A stretch of DNA of 64,000 bases from Spirochaetia bacterium (GCA_963662265.2 CAXXHA010000032.1:64001-128000); one strand, 5' to 3'; counted from the stretch's first letter, positions 42,315 to 49,295 are shown. Notes: generated by a model from the letters alone, not told the origin. Numbers and translations: made by a program.

Positions 42315-43076
42315 CTACCTGACTCCCCTCACACCCTTCATCCATGGAAAAAGTGTTTCAACTGTTTTCAGGGCAGTAAATTCAATTAAAAGCCCCAGCA
42401 CACCGATCATAATTATCCCGAGGTACACAATATCTGTCCTCGCCATCTCTTCGGCATCCAGAATCATGTAACCAAGTCCTGATGATGCTGCAATCATTTC
42501 AGCGCCAATCAGGGCCCTCCAGCAGTATGCGAATCCCAGGCGAAGCCCTGTTATTATTGAAGGAAGCGCTTCAGGGATCAGTATATGAAATATTTTTTCC
42601 CGGTAAGAGAGTTCAAGAGTATCTCCCATTTCAAGTATTCTCCTGTCAACCTGTGAAAGGCCTGAAAAAGTATCAAGAAAAATAGGGAAAAAGCTTGCAA
42701 GGAATATTATAGCCAGTTTTGACCCTTCTCCGATCCCGAACCACAGAATAAGAAGCGGAACAGTTGCAAGAGGCGGAATACTTTTCAAAAGTGAAAAAAA
42801 ACCTTTGAAAAAAGTGTATAAACCGGGTATAAAGTAAAAAGAGAAAGAGAGAGGGACTGCAATCATTACAGTCAGCGAAAAACCGTAAATCACCCGTAAA
42901 AAGGAAATACCTATATGGGTAAAAAGTTTTCCGTTTTCCAGAAGGACAATTCCGCTCCTGAACACTTTAAACGGAGAAGGCACGAGAAAAGAATTGGCTG
43001 TTCCGGTTTCAGAGATTACAAGCCAGAATATGAATAATATGATGATCAGCAGTGTCTGATTCAGTATTTTTTTCAT
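42315..43076 (-). CDS. ABC transporter permease, SsuC/TauC family
   Basis: IPPLA.VPLLILWFGIGE, LIGAEMIAASSGLGY. Confidence 0.9.
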   Translation of the reverse strand: MKKILNQTLLIIILFIFWLVISETGTANSFLVPSPFKVFRSGIVLLENGKLFTHIGISFLRVIYGFSLTVMIAVPLSFSFYFIPGLYTFFKGFFSLLKSIPPLATVPLLILWFGIGEGSKLAIIFLASFFPIFLDTFSGLSQVDRRILEMGDTLELSYREKIFHILIPEALPSIITGLRLGFAYCWRALIGAEMIAASSGLGYMILDAEEMARTDIVYLGIIMIGVLGLLIEFTALKTVETLFPWMKGVRGVR

Positions 43077-43168
43077 TGCAGTTAATATTATCTAATTAAC
43101 TTACATATATCAACTCTCATCACGCAGAAATCAATAAAACATTTTTAAAATTACTTATAAAAAAAGGC

Positions 43169-43231
43169 TTGTCACCCGATATATAGTGTGATAATATCTT
43201 TTTATCAGAAAACAACACCCACATATAGCGG
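43169..43231 (+). promoter_or_regulatory. nrdR-nrdD promoter with two NrdR boxes
   Basis: TTGTCA-17-TAATAT (43169-43197). NrdR boxes ACCCGATATATAGTGT (43174-43189) and CACCCACATATAGCGG (43216-43231) match acaCwAtATaTwGtgt and are 42 bp apart. Confidence 0.8.
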
Positions 43232-43256
43232 GTAATTTATTAAGGGTAATTAAAAA

Positions 43257-43715
43257 ATGAAATGCCCTCATTGCGGCAATCCTGAAGACAGGGTTATAGA
43301 ATCACGACAGAATGCCAGCGCAACAGTAATACGAAGAAGGCGGGAATGTCTGGAATGCAGATACCGCTTCACATCCTATGAGCATATTGAAGAAAAGCAG
43401 CTCATGGTAATAAAGAGGGATGGAAGCAGAGAGAATTTCGACACCCAGAAGATTTTCAGAGGTCTTTCAAAATCGCTTGAAAAAAGACCTGTTACAGGAG
43501 ATCAGATTGAAGCGCTTCTTCACGCAATTGAAGATGAAGCATACAGCGTTGGAAAAAAAGGACACGAAATATCAACTGAAGATTTGGGCGAAATTGTGCT
43601 CAGACAGCTCTTCAAACTGGATAAGGTAGCATATGTCCGCTTTGCATCAGTCTACAAGATGTTCAGCAATGTAAATGAATTTATTAAGGAAATTGAAAAA
43701 ATACCTGAAGAATGA
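43257..43715 (+). CDS. nrdR: Transcriptional repressor NrdR
   Basis: MKCPHC...RRRREC..C..RFTSYE zinc ribbon plus ATP cone; VAYVRFASVY. Confidence 0.97.
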   Translation: MKCPHCGNPEDRVIESRQNASATVIRRRRECLECRYRFTSYEHIEEKQLMVIKRDGSRENFDTQKIFRGLSKSLEKRPVTGDQIEALLHAIEDEAYSVGKKGHEISTEDLGEIVLRQLFKLDKVAYVRFASVYKMFSNVNEFIKEIEKIPEE

Positions 43716-43826
43716 AAAGGCAGGCAGCACTTTCATCTCAGAGTACGGCAGGAAACGAATCTTAACACAGCTTCGTTTATTTTGCATGATCTGAGAAAAA
43801 TTTCAGGGACAATCAGAGGGGGGATT

Positions 43827-45932
43827 GTGACGGTGAATACCAGCAACGACTGGAAAGCCTTTCTGGATCTTGATGAACAGGGAAGCAGCAGAGTTATTCA
43901 GCAGATTGTAAAAAGAGACGGAAAAATTGAGCAGTATGACAGGTGGAAAATTGCCAGTGCAATAAGCAGGGCAATAATTGCAGTAAGAGAGAAAGAAGAC
44001 AAGGAACTTACAGAAAAACTTACTGCTAGAACAGAAGATAAAATCAGGGAATTCAAACTGACAAGGCATCCCAATTCAATACCTGCTATTGAGGAAATTC
44101 AGGATATTGTTGAAACTGTTCTCATAGAAGAAAACATGCCGTCAATTGCAAAAGCTTATATAATTTACAGGGTCAAGCATGAGGCACTCAGAGATGCCAG
44201 GAAACTGATGCTTGATATCAACTCTACAATGGACGGCTATCTTTCGCAGTCAGACTGGAGAGTCAACGAGAATGCAAATGTAAATTTCTCGCTGGGAGGG
44301 CTGATTCTCCATAATTCAGGAACAATAACTGCAAACTACTGGCTTAAAAATATCTATTCAGAAGATATTGCAGATGCTCACAAGAATGCCGACTTTCATA
44401 TTCATGACCTTTCAATGTTTTCAGGATACTGTGCAGGATGGTCACTGAGGCAGCTGATTCAGGAAGGACTCGGAGGTGTGCCGGATAAAATTACATCAAA
44501 GCCGGCAAAACACCTTTCAACCCTTGTTCAGCAGATTGTCAACTTCCTGGGAATAATGCAGAACGAATGGGCGGGTGCTCAGGCACTTTCAAGTTTTGAC
44601 ACATACCTTGCCCCGTTTGTAAAGGCTGACAAGCTTACACACAAGAATACAAAACAGTATCTGCAGAGCTTTGTTTTCGGAGTCAACACACCATCCAGGT
44701 GGGGAAGCCAGGCTCCGTTTACAAACATAACTCTCGACTGGACAGTACCGGAGGATCTTAAGGATAAACCGGCTATTGTAGGCGGTGTTGAAATGGATTT
44801 CACATACGGCGACTGCCAGAGGGAAATGGATATTATCAACAGGGCTTTTATAGAGCTAATGCTTGACGGAGATGCAAACGGACGGGGATTCCAGTACCCT
44901 ATTCCGACTTACAACATAACAAGAAATTTCGACTGGGACAGCGACAATGCAAAACTGCTTTTTGAAATGACTGCAAAATATGGAACACCTAATTTTCAGA
45001 ATTTCATTAACAGCGATCTCAACCCTGAGGATGTGAGGTCTATGTGCTGCCGTCTCCAGCTGGACAAAAGGGAACTCAGAAAACGGGGAGGGGGACTATT
45101 CGGTTCTGATGAATTTACAGGATCAATCGGCGTTGTAACTATCAACCTGCCCCGAATCGGCTATCTGGCCGGTTCAAAGGTTGATTTTTACAACCGTCTC
45201 TCAAACCTCATGGATATAGCATCAAAATCACTTTCAATCAAACGGAAAGTGATAAACAGGCTGATGAATGCGGGTCTTTTTCCATATACAAGGCGATATC
45301 TCAAGCACCTGAACAACCATTTTTCAACAATCGGTATTTCAGGAATGAACGAGTGCCTTTTAAACTTTCTGGGAAAAGATATAACTGAAGAAGAGGGAAA
45401 GGCATTTGCTGAAGAAATCCTTGATTTCATGAGAGAAAGGCTTTCTGAATATCAGGAAAAAACAGGTGATCTCTTCAACCTCGAAGCAACTCCTGCCGAG
45501 AGTACAAGCTATCGCCTTGCAAAGCATGACAGGGAACATTATCCCGATATTATTACATCAGGGGAAAAAGACCCTTATTACACAAACTCTTCCCAGCTGC
45601 CTGTTAACTTCACAACAGATATTTTCGAAGCGCTGGATCACCAGGAATCGCTTCAGACAAAATATACCGGCGGAACAATGTTTCACGGCTTTATCGGGGA
45701 AGCGCTTGATGACTGGGAATCATGCAGCAAACTTGTCAAAGCCATGGCAAACAACTATAAAATTCCGTTTTTTACTATTTCGCCGACCTTTTCCGTATGT
45801 CCGATCCACGGATACCTTTCAGGGGAGCACTTTTACTGCCCCAAATGCAAAGAGGAAGAGGAAAACGAAATAAAAAAACAGATTGCTGAATTAAAAAAAG
45901 AAAAAGAAAAATTAATCGGGGGGGAAAAATGA
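43827..45932 (+). CDS. nrdD: Anaerobic (class III) ribonucleoside-triphosphate reductase, catalytic barrel; lacks the C-terminal glycyl-radical motif
   Basis: ATP cone (IVKRDG...EEIQD), HIHDL, GYCAGW, RSMCCRL, EATPAES, CPIH...CPKC. No RxxGY before the stop. Probable GTG start at 43827 after a G-rich SD. Confidence 0.92.
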   Translation: MTVNTSNDWKAFLDLDEQGSSRVIQQIVKRDGKIEQYDRWKIASAISRAIIAVREKEDKELTEKLTARTEDKIREFKLTRHPNSIPAIEEIQDIVETVLIEENMPSIAKAYIIYRVKHEALRDARKLMLDINSTMDGYLSQSDWRVNENANVNFSLGGLILHNSGTITANYWLKNIYSEDIADAHKNADFHIHDLSMFSGYCAGWSLRQLIQEGLGGVPDKITSKPAKHLSTLVQQIVNFLGIMQNEWAGAQALSSFDTYLAPFVKADKLTHKNTKQYLQSFVFGVNTPSRWGSQAPFTNITLDWTVPEDLKDKPAIVGGVEMDFTYGDCQREMDIINRAFIELMLDGDANGRGFQYPIPTYNITRNFDWDSDNAKLLFEMTAKYGTPNFQNFINSDLNPEDVRSMCCRLQLDKRELRKRGGGLFGSDEFTGSIGVVTINLPRIGYLAGSKVDFYNRLSNLMDIASKSLSIKRKVINRLMNAGLFPYTRRYLKHLNNHFSTIGISGMNECLLNFLGKDITEEEGKAFAEEILDFMRERLSEYQEKTGDLFNLEATPAESTSYRLAKHDREHYPDIITSGEKDPYYTNSSQLPVNFTTDIFEALDHQESLQTKYTGGTMFHGFIGEALDDWESCSKLVKAMANNYKIPFFTISPTFSVCPIHGYLSGEHFYCPKCKEEEENEIKKQIAELKKEKEKLIGGEK

Positions 45933-46438
45933 CATCAGTAGAAAAAATTGATTCACAGATCATTGAACTGGAAAGGCAGCTTAACGAAGTGAAAGGAACA
46001 GAAGCTGAAGTATATACAAGAATTGTAGGCTACTACAGGGCTGTTAAAAACTGGAACAAGGGAAAAAGAGAGGAATACAACCACAGGATCTGCTTTTCAG
46101 AATACAGCAGCACTGAAAAAAAAACAGAAAATGCTGCACCATGTGAAGAAAAAACAGACAGCCAGATAAGTTTTTCAGATGCGGTGAAATACAAATACTT
46201 TTTCAGAAAAACCTGCCCGAACTGCCCTTCTGTAAAGGGATATGTTGAAAACCTTGAGCTGGACAGCGAGCACATAGATGTGGATACAGAAAACGGGCTT
46301 GAATCAGCATCAGATTCACAGGTTTTCGGTGTGCCTACAGTAGTATTCTACGACAACAGCGACAATGAGATATTCAGGGCCCACAACCTGAAAGATCTTA
46401 AAGAAAATATTGATTCAGAAATAGCAGCAGCTGTTTAA
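45929..46438 (+). CDS. NrdD glycyl-radical (C-terminal) module fused to a thioredoxin/glutaredoxin-like domain
   Basis: EVYTRIVGYYRAVKNWNKGKREEY glycyl-radical signature, then KTCPNCP and VFGVPTVVF (CxxC plus cis-Pro loop); ATGA overlap with nrdD. Confidence 0.85.
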   Translation: MTSVEKIDSQIIELERQLNEVKGTEAEVYTRIVGYYRAVKNWNKGKREEYNHRICFSEYSSTEKKTENAAPCEEKTDSQISFSDAVKYKYFFRKTCPNCPSVKGYVENLELDSEHIDVDTENGLESASDSQVFGVPTVVFYDNSDNEIFRAHNLKDLKENIDSEIAAAV

Positions 46439-46442
46439 TCAT

Positions 46443-47138
46443 ATGTCTGTAACAAAAGCAGGACTTCTGAAAACAACCCTGCTTGATTATCCCGGAAAGG
46501 TTGCATCAACTGTATTCCTTCCGGGATGTAATTTCAGATGTCCTTACTGCCACAACAGAGACCTTGTTCTGAATAATGATTATTCGCTGATTCCATCTGA
46601 AGATATTATTGAATATATCAATTCAAAAAAGAACATACTTGAAGGAATATGCATAACAGGCGGCGAGCCGCTCATACACAAAGATCTCAACATGCTTATC
46701 TCAAGAATAAAAGATATGGGGCTTTCCGTAAAACTGGATACAAACGGTTCATTTCCGGAAAAGCTCCCTGATATTAATGTTGATTATATTGCTATGGATA
46801 TAAAAACTGTTCCTGAAAAATACAGCCTTGTTGCAGGAAACATTATAGACAGGAATCTCAGTTCAAAAATAACAGAGTCGATAGACTGGATAAAGAATTC
46901 CGGTATTGATCATGAATTCAGGACAACTCTTGTACCCGGAATAGTTGATTACAGTGATATGGAAAAAATTGCGGAACTTGCAGAAGGATGCATGAGGTAC
47001 ACACTCAACAGGTTTCAGGCTGTCAACACACTTGACAGCGAATGGGAAAAACATATCACATATTCTGACGAAGAATACAAAGAGTTTGTCAGAATACTGG
47101 AAAAAAGAAATATACCTGCTGTATTGAGAGGTGCATAA
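46443..47138 (+). CDS. nrdG: Anaerobic RNR activating protein (radical SAM)
   Basis: LLDYPG, GCNFRCPYCHN, ITGGEP, KLDTNG, EFRTT. Confidence 0.93.
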   Translation: MSVTKAGLLKTTLLDYPGKVASTVFLPGCNFRCPYCHNRDLVLNNDYSLIPSEDIIEYINSKKNILEGICITGGEPLIHKDLNMLISRIKDMGLSVKLDTNGSFPEKLPDINVDYIAMDIKTVPEKYSLVAGNIIDRNLSSKITESIDWIKNSGIDHEFRTTLVPGIVDYSDMEKIAELAEGCMRYTLNRFQAVNTLDSEWEKHITYSDEEYKEFVRILEKRNIPAVLRGA

Positions 47139-47326
47139 AACTGTCTTGCCGGCATTCAGTTGCGTTGCTGTTCTTGCCAGCAATGAAACAAGAACATCGT
47201 TCAAGTAAGTCATTACATGTTCGGGAAGACAGCAGCAGGTTTATATCTGTAAAGATACATAACTTTTCAGCTCACATCATAATTCACAGCACAAAAAACC
47301 CGGTACGCGGAATCAGGAGGAAATAA

Positions 47327-49295
47327 TTATCTTTTGATATTTTCAAGAAGCTTTATTATGTAAAGCTCGACATATCTTTTATAGGGTTCCTGTTTCTTTA
47401 TCCCGACATTTGATGTTTTATTCACAAGGTCTTCGGCAAGTGCTGATATCCTCTTTGCATCAGGAGGATATTTCATGAAAAGCTTCTTTTTTGTCCTGAT
47501 AAAATCCCTTATGAGAGAATTGACATCTTCAACAAGATTTGCCCTTGCCTGTTCATCATAAAGAGGATTCCATTTCTCGGAAAGCCTCATCCAGACCCTC
47601 GTTTATATTGCTTTTATCTGAACCGAGAAAACTGTTTCTTCAGGGTTCTTACTGCTGCAGCATAATTTGCGCTGTCTTTTGCCTTATCGACTGAAGAAGG
47701 CTTGTACATTGCAGGGCTGATTCATAGCTTCCGGCGGCCTGAGTTCCTGGTAAGCAGACCCGTTTCCAGCTTCCTGCATATCTGCAGAAGTATCTTTACT
47801 TCTTTTTCTTTCCGGTGAACATCCTGCCCAGCATTACAATCATCTTTCCAAATACAGGAAGGCTGTATACAATAGGAAGGTTAACCCTGGCCTCTTTTAA
47901 AAGGTCTACCCTGTCAACACCAAGAAGGTTGTCGAGTGTCTTGAATTTCCCATTTGAGGCAAAACAGCCTGACACGGAATTTTTAATATTTTCATGCAGG
48001 GAATTTGACTGGTTGGAAAGATATATAAGCCCGGGATTAAGAAGGGCGTTGAGAAGTTTATGATCATTTTTAACACAATCTTCAATTGCTGCTATAAAAA
48101 CATCATCACGCTGCATATCTTTTGTCTTGTTGAAATTTTTCATGTTTTCGGTCCATTTCACCAGGAACTGATCATGAACCTCTTTACCTGAATCTATGAG
48201 TTTTTTAAGAAAAACCTGGGGAACCATATCCCCTCTGGATATAGTATTCCTTTCGCCGCTCAGGAACCACTCTTACAAGATAGGGAAGATCCTCCCCTTC
48301 TTTTACAGCTGTCTCTCTTTTTATAAAATTGTTGACAAAATCCCTGCTATACTTGGAACTGTATGCTTTTCCGCTTTTATCTTTCAGATCATACATTTCA
48401 GTAATTGAAAATATATGTGGCGGTTTTTTTACAGAGTCTGAAAGCTCCTTATAATCTGTTTTCTTCTGGTTTTCCTTCTGCATCAGCCCCCTGAAATAAG
48501 TGATAAAGGGCTCTGAGCATATAAAGGGACTGGCATGTGTATATATCTGATGCTGTTTTAATCATTCTTGTCCAGAACATCTTTTATGACTTTATTACAG
48601 AAAAATGAGAAAAATTTGAATGAAAAATCATTAGGCTTAAGCACCTGGTTCTTGAAATTACCGGGACCTGCAAGTATGGATTCCATAAGCTTTTTAACTG
48701 CAAGGTCCTTTCCGGGAATTGCCTTACGGAGATATCTTCCTATATATGCATAGTTATTCTGATTCCTCACATAAAGATGGAGTTTTTTCAAAACAACATC
48801 AAACAGTATATTTTTAAGAATTTCCGGAGGAAGTACAATATCTCCTATTCCCTCGGGAAACTGGATAAGAACAACCTTTCCCTTCTCATCATCAGACAGT
48901 TTCATCGTATTAAGAAAATCTGTCTTAATATCAAAAACAATTATCCAGCTGTTATCAATCATAAAACTGAATGATTTCAGGTCAGGATAGGGCAATTCAG
49001 GCCTGTCTTCAAGTTCCTTGTATTTAGGCAGAATAAGCTGTCTGTAATATTTATGAACCTGAAATGAGGAAATACGGGAAGCATCATAATTGATTGTACA
49101 GCTCCCGTCATGCTCCATTTTTTTCAGCATCGGTATTGCAGCCAGTTTAAAATCCTCAAGATTCCTTGCTTCAATACTTCCCTTATTGGATTCATAATAG
49201 GAAGTCAGCTGATCCATAAAAAACGTGTAGTTTATTGAGGGATTACGCCTCTTGATAATAAGTGCTTTAATAATCTTTTCAATTACTTCATTCAT
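47327..49295 (-). pseudogene. One ~653-aa hypothetical protein gene broken by about seven apparent +1 insertions (pseudogene or sequencing error)
   Basis: Four collinear ORF pieces plus protein-like linkers rejoin when single bases are removed near 48560, 48509, 48231, 47799, 47716, 47629 and 47585. 1969-7=1962 nt=654 codons. Confidence 0.75.

Follow-up and report, generated by a model that had tools for sequence, protein, structure and literature searches.

A class III ribonucleotide reductase of Spirochaetia probably works as two chains, with its glycyl-radical loop on a separate thioredoxin-like subunit

To our knowledge, every characterised glycyl-radical enzyme carries its radical glycine within the catalytic polypeptide. 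A 64,000-nucleotide (nt) stretch of DNA from a Spirochaetia bacterium (GCA_963662265.2, CAXXHA010000032.1:64001-128000), which we call the window, holds a gene for a class III ribonucleotide reductase (RNR), nrdD, that ends before reaching its radical loop; the loop lies on the next open reading frame (ORF), ahead of a thioredoxin-like (Trx-like) domain. The locus raises the question of whether this break is genuine, how the two products could make up one enzyme, and what the extra domain is for. We conclude that the split is almost certainly real and functional, and we put the probability of the whole explanation developed below, a working two-chain class III RNR, at roughly three in four.

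The radical loop is encoded by a separate reading frame

The gene order is nrdR, large nrdD, a 169-codon ORF and nrdG, all on the + strand. The features that the argument needs are listed here, with positions counted over the whole window and residue numbers of the large NrdD chain counted from TTG 43782.

43827..45932, + strand: nrdD large chain, with ATP-cone, catalytic barrel, zinc ribbon and C-terminal heptad helix (NF006126, PF13597)
43902..44183, + strand: ATP-cone, residues 41-134 (PF03477, E 1.5e-18)
44430..44432, + strand: Cys217, the conserved bottom-face cysteine (alignment to 4COI; invariant in 21/21)
45042..45053, + strand: finger-loop motif M421-C422-C423-R424, of the double-cysteine type with Met (invariant in 21/21)
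45477..45485, + strand: N566-L567-E568, with the active-site Glu that marks the NrdD2 subtype (invariant in 21/21; aligns with FNIE of 4COI)
45798..45848, + strand: zinc site C673-x2-H676 ... C686-x2-C689, complete on the large chain (four ligands invariant)
45849..45917, + strand: C-terminal amphipathic heptad helix of the large chain, residues 690-712 (heptad conservation, complex model)
45918..45932, + strand: junction G7A5TGA, with the G-run as putative Shine-Dalgarno of the small ORF and an ATGA overlap (sequence, relatives, contigs)
45929..46438, + strand: small chain of 169 amino acids (aa), with docking helix, glycyl-radical loop, linker and Trx-like domain (1899 clusters; alignment of 50 sequences)
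45932..45988, + strand: N-terminal heptad helix of the small chain, residues 2-20 (model helix 2-20, per-residue model confidence (pLDDT) 85-91; heptads in 90 pairs)
45995..46096, + strand: glycyl-radical loop region, small-chain residues 23-56, with the radical glycine G34 at 46028-46030 (PF13597, conservation)
46097..46183, + strand: variable disordered linker of the small chain, with an A9 run at 46116-46124 (pLDDT <50 at residues 59-78; length and sequence vary in the alignment of 50)
46184..46426, + strand: minimal thioredoxin fold, with CPNC at 46214-46225 and the cis-Pro P136-T137 at 46334-46339 (model, Foldseek, invariance in 50 sequences)
46443..47138, + strand: nrdG, radical S-adenosylmethionine activase, 4 nt past the small ORF (TIGR02495 NrdG2, 180.4 bits, cut-off 131.15)
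43257..43715, + strand: nrdR, transcriptional repressor of RNR genes, directly upstream of nrdD (Pfam Zn_ribbon_NrdR E 7.2e-18, ATP-cone E 7.2e-23)

The large ORF matches the NrdD profile NF006126 at 1092.3 bits (cut-off 548, profile positions 2-663 of 684), and the Pfam family PF13597 (NRDD) is divided between the two frames: positions 1-532 of 562 fall on the large ORF (593.6 bits) and positions 532-561 on residues 25-55 of the small one (30.4 bits, E 2.2e-7), the cut-off being 26.2 for both. The large chain ends in ...CPIHGYLSGEHFYCPKC followed by KEEEENEIKKQIAELKKEKEKLIGGEK and a stop, a charged amphipathic stretch that closes 27 residues past the last zinc cysteine, and by its sequence and its PF13597 coverage the large ORF lacks an RxxGY glycyl-radical loop. 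The small ORF runs from an N-terminal helix through YTRIVGYY and a linker to CPNC and VPT (46331-46339). Sequence and profile thus confirm what the first-pass annotation had described, namely an NrdD that stops soon after its zinc site without RxxGY and a following ORF made of a helix, the radical motif, a linker and a CPNC/VPT Trx-like domain. The loop does not share a polypeptide with the barrel but is provided in trans by the next ORF.

What the large chain does contain is intact. Its mean column identity is 81% over 21 orthologues, and the finger-loop cysteines C422/C423 and the zinc ligands C673, H676, C686 and C689 are invariant in all 21 and align to the Thermotoga maritima enzyme (4COI), whose CCR lies opposite MCCR and whose Cys125, in a YC motif, lies opposite Cys217; the role of this conserved bottom cysteine is discussed in part of PMC4493059. 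The same part of that source gives the NrdD2 subtype (Wei et al.) as thioredoxin-using, with a third finger-loop Cys and an active-site Glu, and here both MCCR and NLE are invariant. As judged from the alignments, the retained catalytic residues and the 81% identity indicate strong purifying selection on the large chain. Its frame is open from TTG 43782 to 45932; GTG 43827 is the likelier start, standing behind a G-run Shine-Dalgarno (GAGGGGGGG, 3 nt, then GTG; 43812-43829) that resembles the G-run ahead of the small ORF.

The small chain belongs to a large family (1899 database clusters of 92-296 aa at E<=1e-3). In an alignment of 50 sequences, G23, E27, Y29, R31-R37, N41-N43, G45, K46, E49 and R53 are invariant, and the fold predicted for the chain alone begins with a helix (2-20) and a loosely structured loop region, followed by a disordered linker and then a domain (87-166). 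The invariant loop, like the CPxC and cis-Pro described below, indicates strong purifying selection on this chain as well. Downstream of the small ORF, nrdG is present in 20 of 21 loci, the 21st ending at a contig edge.

The split is conserved and apparently necessary

The small protein is present in 30 of 40 related genomes, with full-length matches in open frames of 162-199 codons. Upstream DNA was available for 18 of 20 loci, and in 18/18 NrdD ends after the helix, at junctions that are an ATGA overlap in 4, a TAATG overlap in 3, a +1 gap in 1 and a 12-22-nt spacer with AGGAG in 10. A search of Spirochaetota loci for a conserved split, which the first-pass annotation had proposed, found it in 79 of 80 named genome records, with NrdD ending 21-34 residues past its CxxC; the 80th locus is cut by a contig end. 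A layout that recurs so often is well beyond chance. Carriers include Treponema pectinovorum ATCC 33768, T. porcinum ATCC BAA-908, Treponema sp. OMZ 840 and Candidatus Marispirochaeta associata. Over the 79 loci the gap between the two ORFs varies between -4 and +348 nt, each of the three frame relations is represented (29, 25 and 25 loci), and the large ORF stops at TAA (60), TGA (16) or TAG (3).

Split NrdD was found in 9/9 genomes of genus g3 and in 4/5 of genus g4, while the class I/II RNR family PF02867 matched 0/9 and 0/5 of them; 12 of these 14 genomes are at least 90% complete, and 12 of 14 control genomes matched. The split enzyme is therefore apparently the only RNR of the g3 and g4 genomes, and with a class I/II match absent from all 14 it must work. 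PF02867 was also unmatched in the window's own genome (90.6% complete) and matched in its two congeners, from which we draw no inference. Comparative genomics, conservation and the modelling described below together bear out the core of the earlier reading, a genuine split in which a separate small Trx-fused chain bears the radical loop.

The two chains are predicted to dock through their terminal helices

Both chain ends facing the junction have heptad character. Among 90 distinct pairs, the large-chain tail has I, L or V in 100% at +8, +12 and +15 after CxxC and in 92% at +22, with K or R in 99% at +19; the small-chain N-terminus has V, L or I in 93-100% at five a/d positions spaced 3-4-3-4. 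A complex model of both chains scored 0.82 against 0.00 for the best control, and the terminal helices interact in it. Of 157 solved complexes, 116 attained the mark set for this score, as did 2 of 215 mismatched pairs; these counts hold roughly for a model made, as ours was, from our own alignments. At least 72% of contacts were common to the runs, and partner pLDDT was at least 71. Contacts of the large chain fall at 689-690, 693-694, 697-698, 700-701, 704-705, 707-708 and 711-712, in i, i+3/4 steps, and those of the small-chain helix at 3-4, 7-8, 10-11, 14-15 and 17-18. Beyond the helices, small-chain residues 25-30 lie on the zinc-ribbon strands 669-673 and 681-686 (the 667-687 region of the large chain), and the loop 21-37 enters the barrel. 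This last part of the model may score well because it resembles solved one-chain NrdD. One-chain relatives with 11 residues between zinc site and loop have nothing that corresponds to the helix pair.

Docking by a coiled coil of the terminal helices is, in our estimation, very probable. The geometry, together with a one-chain relative (P0121) in which both helices are joined by a short loop, implies that the helices pair antiparallel, like a hairpin cut in its loop. The heterodimeric coiled coil proposed at first pass thus stands as far as paired helices go, given the heptads and the model score, with the qualification that the pairing must be antiparallel.

A proposed working of the two-chain enzyme

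In the explanation that we favour, the large chain would contribute the ATP-cone, the barrel with its thiyl-radical finger loop MCCR, the complete zinc ribbon and a terminal heptad helix. This helix and that of the small chain would form the antiparallel coiled coil, which would position the G34 loop to pair with the zinc ribbon and reach into the barrel, as it does in one-chain NrdD. The product of the adjacent nrdG would put the radical on an RNR chain, presumably the small one. The Trx-fold domain with its CPNC, tethered to the small chain by a flexible linker of 30-60 residues, would re-reduce the active-site disulfide at each turnover and would probably be recharged by thioredoxin reductase. 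Finally, the G-run and ATGA overlap at the junction would serve as Shine-Dalgarno and as a means of translational coupling, giving 1:1 synthesis of the two chains.

Several observations weigh against this explanation or parts of it. The complex model was built from our own alignments, and its controls are presumed, not proven, non-binders. Another type of split in Spirochaetota, which we call the mini type (below), has no coiled coil, so that the helices are not the sole way to hold the chains. The Trx-like domain lies outside the confident model interface, with no confident contacts beyond small-chain residue 60, and it falls under the cut-offs of the redoxin families compared, at 18.7 of 22.9 bits for PF00085, 17.8 of 23.5 for PF00462, 20.6 of 92.75 for TIGR00411 and 20.3 of 88.55 for TIGR02196. 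It is absent from the small chains of the genus g26 and from the 52-65-aa mini-subunits of other Spirochaetota, and so a split enzyme can work without it. Lastly, the finger loop retains the Met that is linked to formate use, so formate is a possible reductant.

The thioredoxin-like domain as a proposed tethered reductant

Residues 87-166 of the small chain are predicted to form a thioredoxin fold (beta-alpha-beta-alpha-beta-beta-alpha, pLDDT about 90), and the best Foldseek matches of this predicted structure are thioredoxins (6mos, E 6.9e-5, TM-target 0.66, probability 1.00). As in a redoxin, C96-P-N-C99 stands ahead of a helix (99-107) and P136-T137 ahead of a strand (137-141); C96, P97, C99, P136 and T137 are invariant in 50 sequences. 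The domain is a divergent, unnamed branch of the Trx fold. The genome also encodes a thioredoxin reductase (TIGR01292, 381 bits, cut-off 343). From the Trx-fold match, the Cys/Cys/Glu set of NrdD2 and this reductase we infer, with slight preference over other roles, that the domain is a dedicated, tethered reductant of the active-site disulfide.

An alternative is that the domain has another role (sensing redox state, shielding the radical site or acting like a chaperone), while formate or free thioredoxin is the true reductant. It draws on the absence of the domain from the small chains of g26 and of the mini type and from canonical relatives that fall within the same clade, on the Met kept in the finger loop of the large chain, and on a complex model that does not dock the domain confidently. 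Against it, CPxC and the cis-Pro, which are the redox-catalytic features of the fold, are invariant in the 50 sequences, one-chain NrdDs from several lineages carry this domain as a fusion (our tree has 35 insert-free Trx-fused rows), and the large chain shows the Cys/Cys/Glu set by which NrdD2, the thioredoxin-using type, is defined. We consider this alternative unlikely, and prefer the tethered reductant.

The first-pass annotation had stated that enzymes with SMCCRL-type loops use a redoxin and not formate, which is too strong. In the part of PMC9669993 that treats the matter, the finger-loop Met is associated with formate use, Met-containing double-Cys loops could use either reductant, and the reductant of such class III RNRs is debated; the Trx fusion is circumstantial evidence for a redoxin. 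As a 'Rosetta-stone' clue, the covalent Trx-like domain suggests that Met-containing double-Cys class III RNRs use one.

Other Spirochaetota splits and a possible replaceable radical chain

Of 300 Spirochaetota genomes sampled, 143 match the small chain, as does the window's own genome. Twenty-five match rows of this survey stand outside the list and 14 loci were inspected, and the category counts are among the matches listed: Trx-bearing small chains in 39 genomes, unsplit frames of more than 700 codons in 13, and loop-only matches in open frames of 53-112 codons in roughly 80. All nine sampled genomes of g26 have a small chain of about 95-106 residues, with helix and loop and no Trx domain. 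In this genus 600 kb (G055) or 95 kb (G104) separate the large gene from the small gene and nrdG, and both chains keep their helices; an nrdR ORF precedes the unlinked nrdD, and the small gene stays coupled to nrdG. The g26 loci of these two genomes are given here.

L131 3565-3852: g26 locus (G055, G104)
L132: g26 locus (G055, G104)
L137 513-2639: g26 locus (G055, G104)

The mini-type split, in other Spirochaetota classes, involves a different NrdD lineage that ends after the zinc-site region without a coiled coil, in the order NrdD, loop-only ORF of 52-65 residues, nrdG (7 loci; L123-L130, L135 and L136 examined). Genomes with a single nrdD may have several mini-ORFs (4 in G241, 3 in G182, 3 in G198), and some of these are unlinked, lying by our reading of the ORFs beside TonB-receptor-like, leuS-like or phage-like genes. 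The mini family comprises 435 database clusters, and NCBIfam has no model dedicated to it. At one mini-type locus (L136 1456-3527) the large nrdD itself occupies two overlapping frames of 264 and 426 aa, which could be a frameshift, an assembly error or a further split.

These arrangements bear on a second proposal, compatible with the two-chain explanation and lending it a purpose: that the value of the split lies in a small chain that NrdG loads off the enzyme and that is swapped after O2 cleavage. Part of PMC13450708 sets out that O2 cuts glycyl-radical enzymes at the glycine that bears the radical and that GrcA is an established repair part. The proposal also gains from the g26 genomes, where the small chain is coupled to nrdG although nrdD is 95-600 kb away, and from the other Spirochaetota with one nrdD and 3-4 Gly-loop mini-ORFs, some of them unlinked. 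Other observations speak against it in the window's lineage. In 27 of 30 genomes the small ORF has a single match, and the additional matches in the others are a weak hit, a second contig and a two-piece hit; its translation is coupled to that of nrdD; and the coiled coil and beta-pairing suggest tight rather than exchangeable binding. After cleavage at G34, moreover, the helix fragment would by our reasoning stay bound. The large chain has no loop of its own, which makes the small chain an obligate subunit and not a spare. Exchange as the purpose of the split thus seems unlikely to us. Single copy, translational coupling and the loop-less large chain point instead to a small chain that is, in the window's lineage, an obligate, stoichiometric subunit first. 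That it is in addition a diffusible radical-plus-reductant cartridge, which NrdG loads off the enzyme and which plugs in via the coiled coil and is replaced after O2 cleavage, is an idea that we advance tentatively and hold to be doubtful.

The junction is an overlap of two genes

At the junction, G7 (45918-45924) and A5 (45925-45929) are followed by TGA, and the ATG of the small ORF (45929-45931) overlaps that stop as ATGA. One extra G or A would join the two frames. On the sequence, the G-run serves the small ORF as its Shine-Dalgarno, and the ATGA overlap provides translational coupling; the same kind of G-run at the nrdD start supports its reading as a ribosome-binding site, and relatives have GGAGG-like sequences 5-9 nt ahead of the small-ORF start.

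We examined the junction in assembled contigs (not raw reads) of four public runs, aligned to 45500-46600. Contigs of X1 and X2, from a study (P1) that is possibly the window's source, match exactly and cross the junction with 0 gaps. So do record 12 of X5 (study P2), with 1 substitution, and record 14 of X8 (study P3), with 57 substitutions, both with 0 gaps across the junction. No indel at 45918-45932 was found in the contigs of the three studies.

The gaps, frame relations and stop codons that vary among the 79 loci exclude sequencing error and programmed frameshifting, and we reject frameshifting as a general explanation of loci that differ in frame, spacing and stop codon. A narrower form of it holds that, within the window's genus, -1 frameshifting or transcriptional slippage on GGGGGGGAAAAATGA also yields some fused protein. 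The three genomes of the genus have 5-7 A right before TGA, with the small ORF in the -1 frame, and a slip of the P-site Lys-tRNA at A-AAA-TGA is, by our own reasoning, conceivable. The G-rich element is, however, accounted for as a Shine-Dalgarno, since the nrdD start has the same G-run; relatives carry GGAGG at the equivalent site, with spacers and other frames; and a fused form is not needed, as relatives function with unlinked genes. We therefore regard such a fused by-product as highly improbable.

An assembly artefact, in which a homopolymer error at G7A5 divides one true ORF, is less probable still, to the point of being negligible. A single added base does merge the frames, and a database protein from a close relative (P0134, 85% identity over the shared part) reads through the junction as ...SGGGKM.... 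That protein, however, has out-of-frame junk at both ends, with a C-terminal break near the A9 run, and another (P0128) has junk at the junction; we reject both as natural junction-spanning fusions and take them for products of error-prone assemblies. The contigs of three studies have the junction without an indel, and the split recurs in 79 of 80 loci with unrelated junction sequences, spacers of up to 348 nt, all frame relations and three stops, on which grounds an assembly or homopolymer error is rejected as its cause. The first-pass caveat of a homopolymer error or slippage is accordingly refuted. The A9 homopolymer itself (46116-46124) lies in the linker of the small ORF, about where P0134 leaves its frame, and shows no indel in the aligned contigs.

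That the gene is a decaying pseudogene whose split marks loss of function has only the truncation itself in its favour, and can be dismissed in view of the 81% mean identity and wholly invariant catalytic residues of the large chain, the unmatched class I/II RNR in 14 related genomes and the 1899 clusters of the small chain. We thus retain the reading of two functional, coupled genes.

Single-chain relatives suggest how the split arose

Relatives of the enzyme fall into a series. Canonical NrdDs (P0175, P0181) have 11 residues from zinc site to loop and a tail of about 27 residues. Insert-free NrdD-Trx fusions (P0124, P0155) keep the 11-residue spacing and add a C-terminal CPNC domain; the tree contains 35 such rows, with source names that include Spirochaetota, Margulisbacteria and archaea. 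Other Trx fusions have inserts of 16-37 residues between zinc site and loop (37 in P0148 and P0162), and in P0121 a single chain bears a 53-residue helix-loop-helix insert. These database fusions (P0124, P0155, P0143, P0161; P0121) belong to the same subfamily as the window's enzyme and share its C-terminal CPNC domain, but are unsplit. In a FastTree phylogeny of 87 NrdD cores, the 21 split forms are nested among Trx-fused ones, and other Trx-fused groups branch outside; its backbone is poorly resolved, with 23 of 84 inner branches open, and 23 of 89 longer hits were left out as shorter than 640 aa, longer than 1000 aa or without CxxC before the loop.

The likely order of events, as read from these sequences, is Trx fusion, then insertion of the hairpin, then fission in the hairpin loop. 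The tree is compatible with a single origin of the split, though it does not establish one. The single-chain intermediates offer a clear example of how an inserted helical hairpin permits a gene to be split. Some NrdDs of 950-1960 aa (P0159, P0166, P0168, P0187, P0191) contain intein/LAGLIDADG domains (PF14890, PF14528); they are archaeal where a source is named, and some have a Trx-like tail.

Additional observations on the locus

A scan of 43000-47400 found 9 promoter-like sites where 10.3 are expected and 1 terminator-like site where 3.2 are expected. In the one RNA run found, X10, the fraction of sampled words present was 0.07. Most of the 50 small chains close with x-A-V or a similar ending (AAV, FAV, QAV, CAV) at the C-terminus (46427-46435 in the window), which hints at a docking peptide for some partner. 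A protein of 171 aa that is 76% identical to the small chain (P0003) is filed under the transcriptome of the anaerobic protist Anaeramoeba ignava; it probably comes from a spirochaete associated with or ingested by the protist, and hints weakly at transcription of the gene in a relative. Another database entry (P0125, 320 aa) has the radical loop, Trx-like domain and NrdG in one frame and is either a fusion or an artefact of a 2-kb contig, and a third (P0138, 317 aa) is a small chain whose long acidic linker holds two extra CxxC pairs.

Comparison with known systems

With one-chain NrdD and its activase NrdG (T. maritima 4COI/4U3E, phage T4 1H78, 8P23) the window's enzyme shares the family, ATP-cone, barrel, finger-loop Cys, zinc ribbon, RxxGY and activase. 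In the one-chain enzymes the loop comes 11 residues past the last zinc cysteine on the same chain, whereas here a stop, two docking helices and a new start intervene, and a Trx fold follows the loop. Among redoxin-dependent relatives, the Methanosarcina barkeri NrdD3 is a class III RNR with a dedicated redoxin, an operon-encoded NrdH-like protein served by a ferredoxin:disulfide reductase, but there the redoxin is separate and the loop is in the catalytic chain. NrdD3 is without the active-site Glu according to part of PMC4493059. NrdD2 (for example of Neisseria bacilliformis; parts of PMC4493059 and PMC9669993) shares the third finger-loop Cys, the Glu and the bottom Cys; its reductant is free thioredoxin, whereas the window's enzyme has a Trx-like domain covalently tethered to the radical chain, and Met before CC.

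The split class II RNR NrdJa/NrdJb of Pseudomonas aeruginosa, described in part of PMC9669993, is likewise an RNR with a catalytic chain divided close to the C-terminus, and its extra elements are believed to keep the parts together. It differs in using adenosylcobalamin and no glycyl radical, and its split-off part has IscU-like and Zn-finger domains, not the radical site.

GrcA/YfiD is a small free-standing protein with a glycyl-radical loop that serves a large barrel enzyme, and the 169-aa ORF answers to that description. GrcA, however, replaces a loop that PFL already has and is homologous to the PFL C-terminus, whereas the window's small chain has an NrdD-type loop that matches NrdD profiles only, a docking helix and a redoxin domain, is co-translated, and serves a large chain that never has a loop (absent in 79/79 loci). 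Nor does the window's genome hold a second full-length NrdD, its two PF13597 matches being the large and small ORFs. A 2026 review (PMC13450708), in the part concerned, gives formate lyases as the only class of glycyl-radical enzymes with spare-part proteins. In the full-text literature searched, with subscription journals mostly outside it, we found no published description of a split class III RNR or of an NrdD-Trx fusion.

Implications

Databases handle the small ORFs inconsistently, as 'anaerobic ribonucleoside-triphosphate reductase', 'thiol reductase thioredoxin' or 'hypothetical', and no NCBIfam model covers them. A whole bacterial lineage that includes cultured species has the radical on a separate chain of about 19 kDa, and in some genera this enzyme is apparently the sole RNR. 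The separable parts make it possible to test how the activase gains access to the buried glycine, whether the radical domain leaves the barrel, and whether subunits are exchanged after oxygen damage. If the small chain does prove exchangeable, the GrcA principle would have been invented a second time, independently, and there would be a class III RNR with the organisation of class I, a catalytic chain plus a separate radical chain. Spirochaetota would then hold a graded series of radical loops: tethered, coupled as in the window, unlinked as in g26, and multi-copy as in the mini-subunits.

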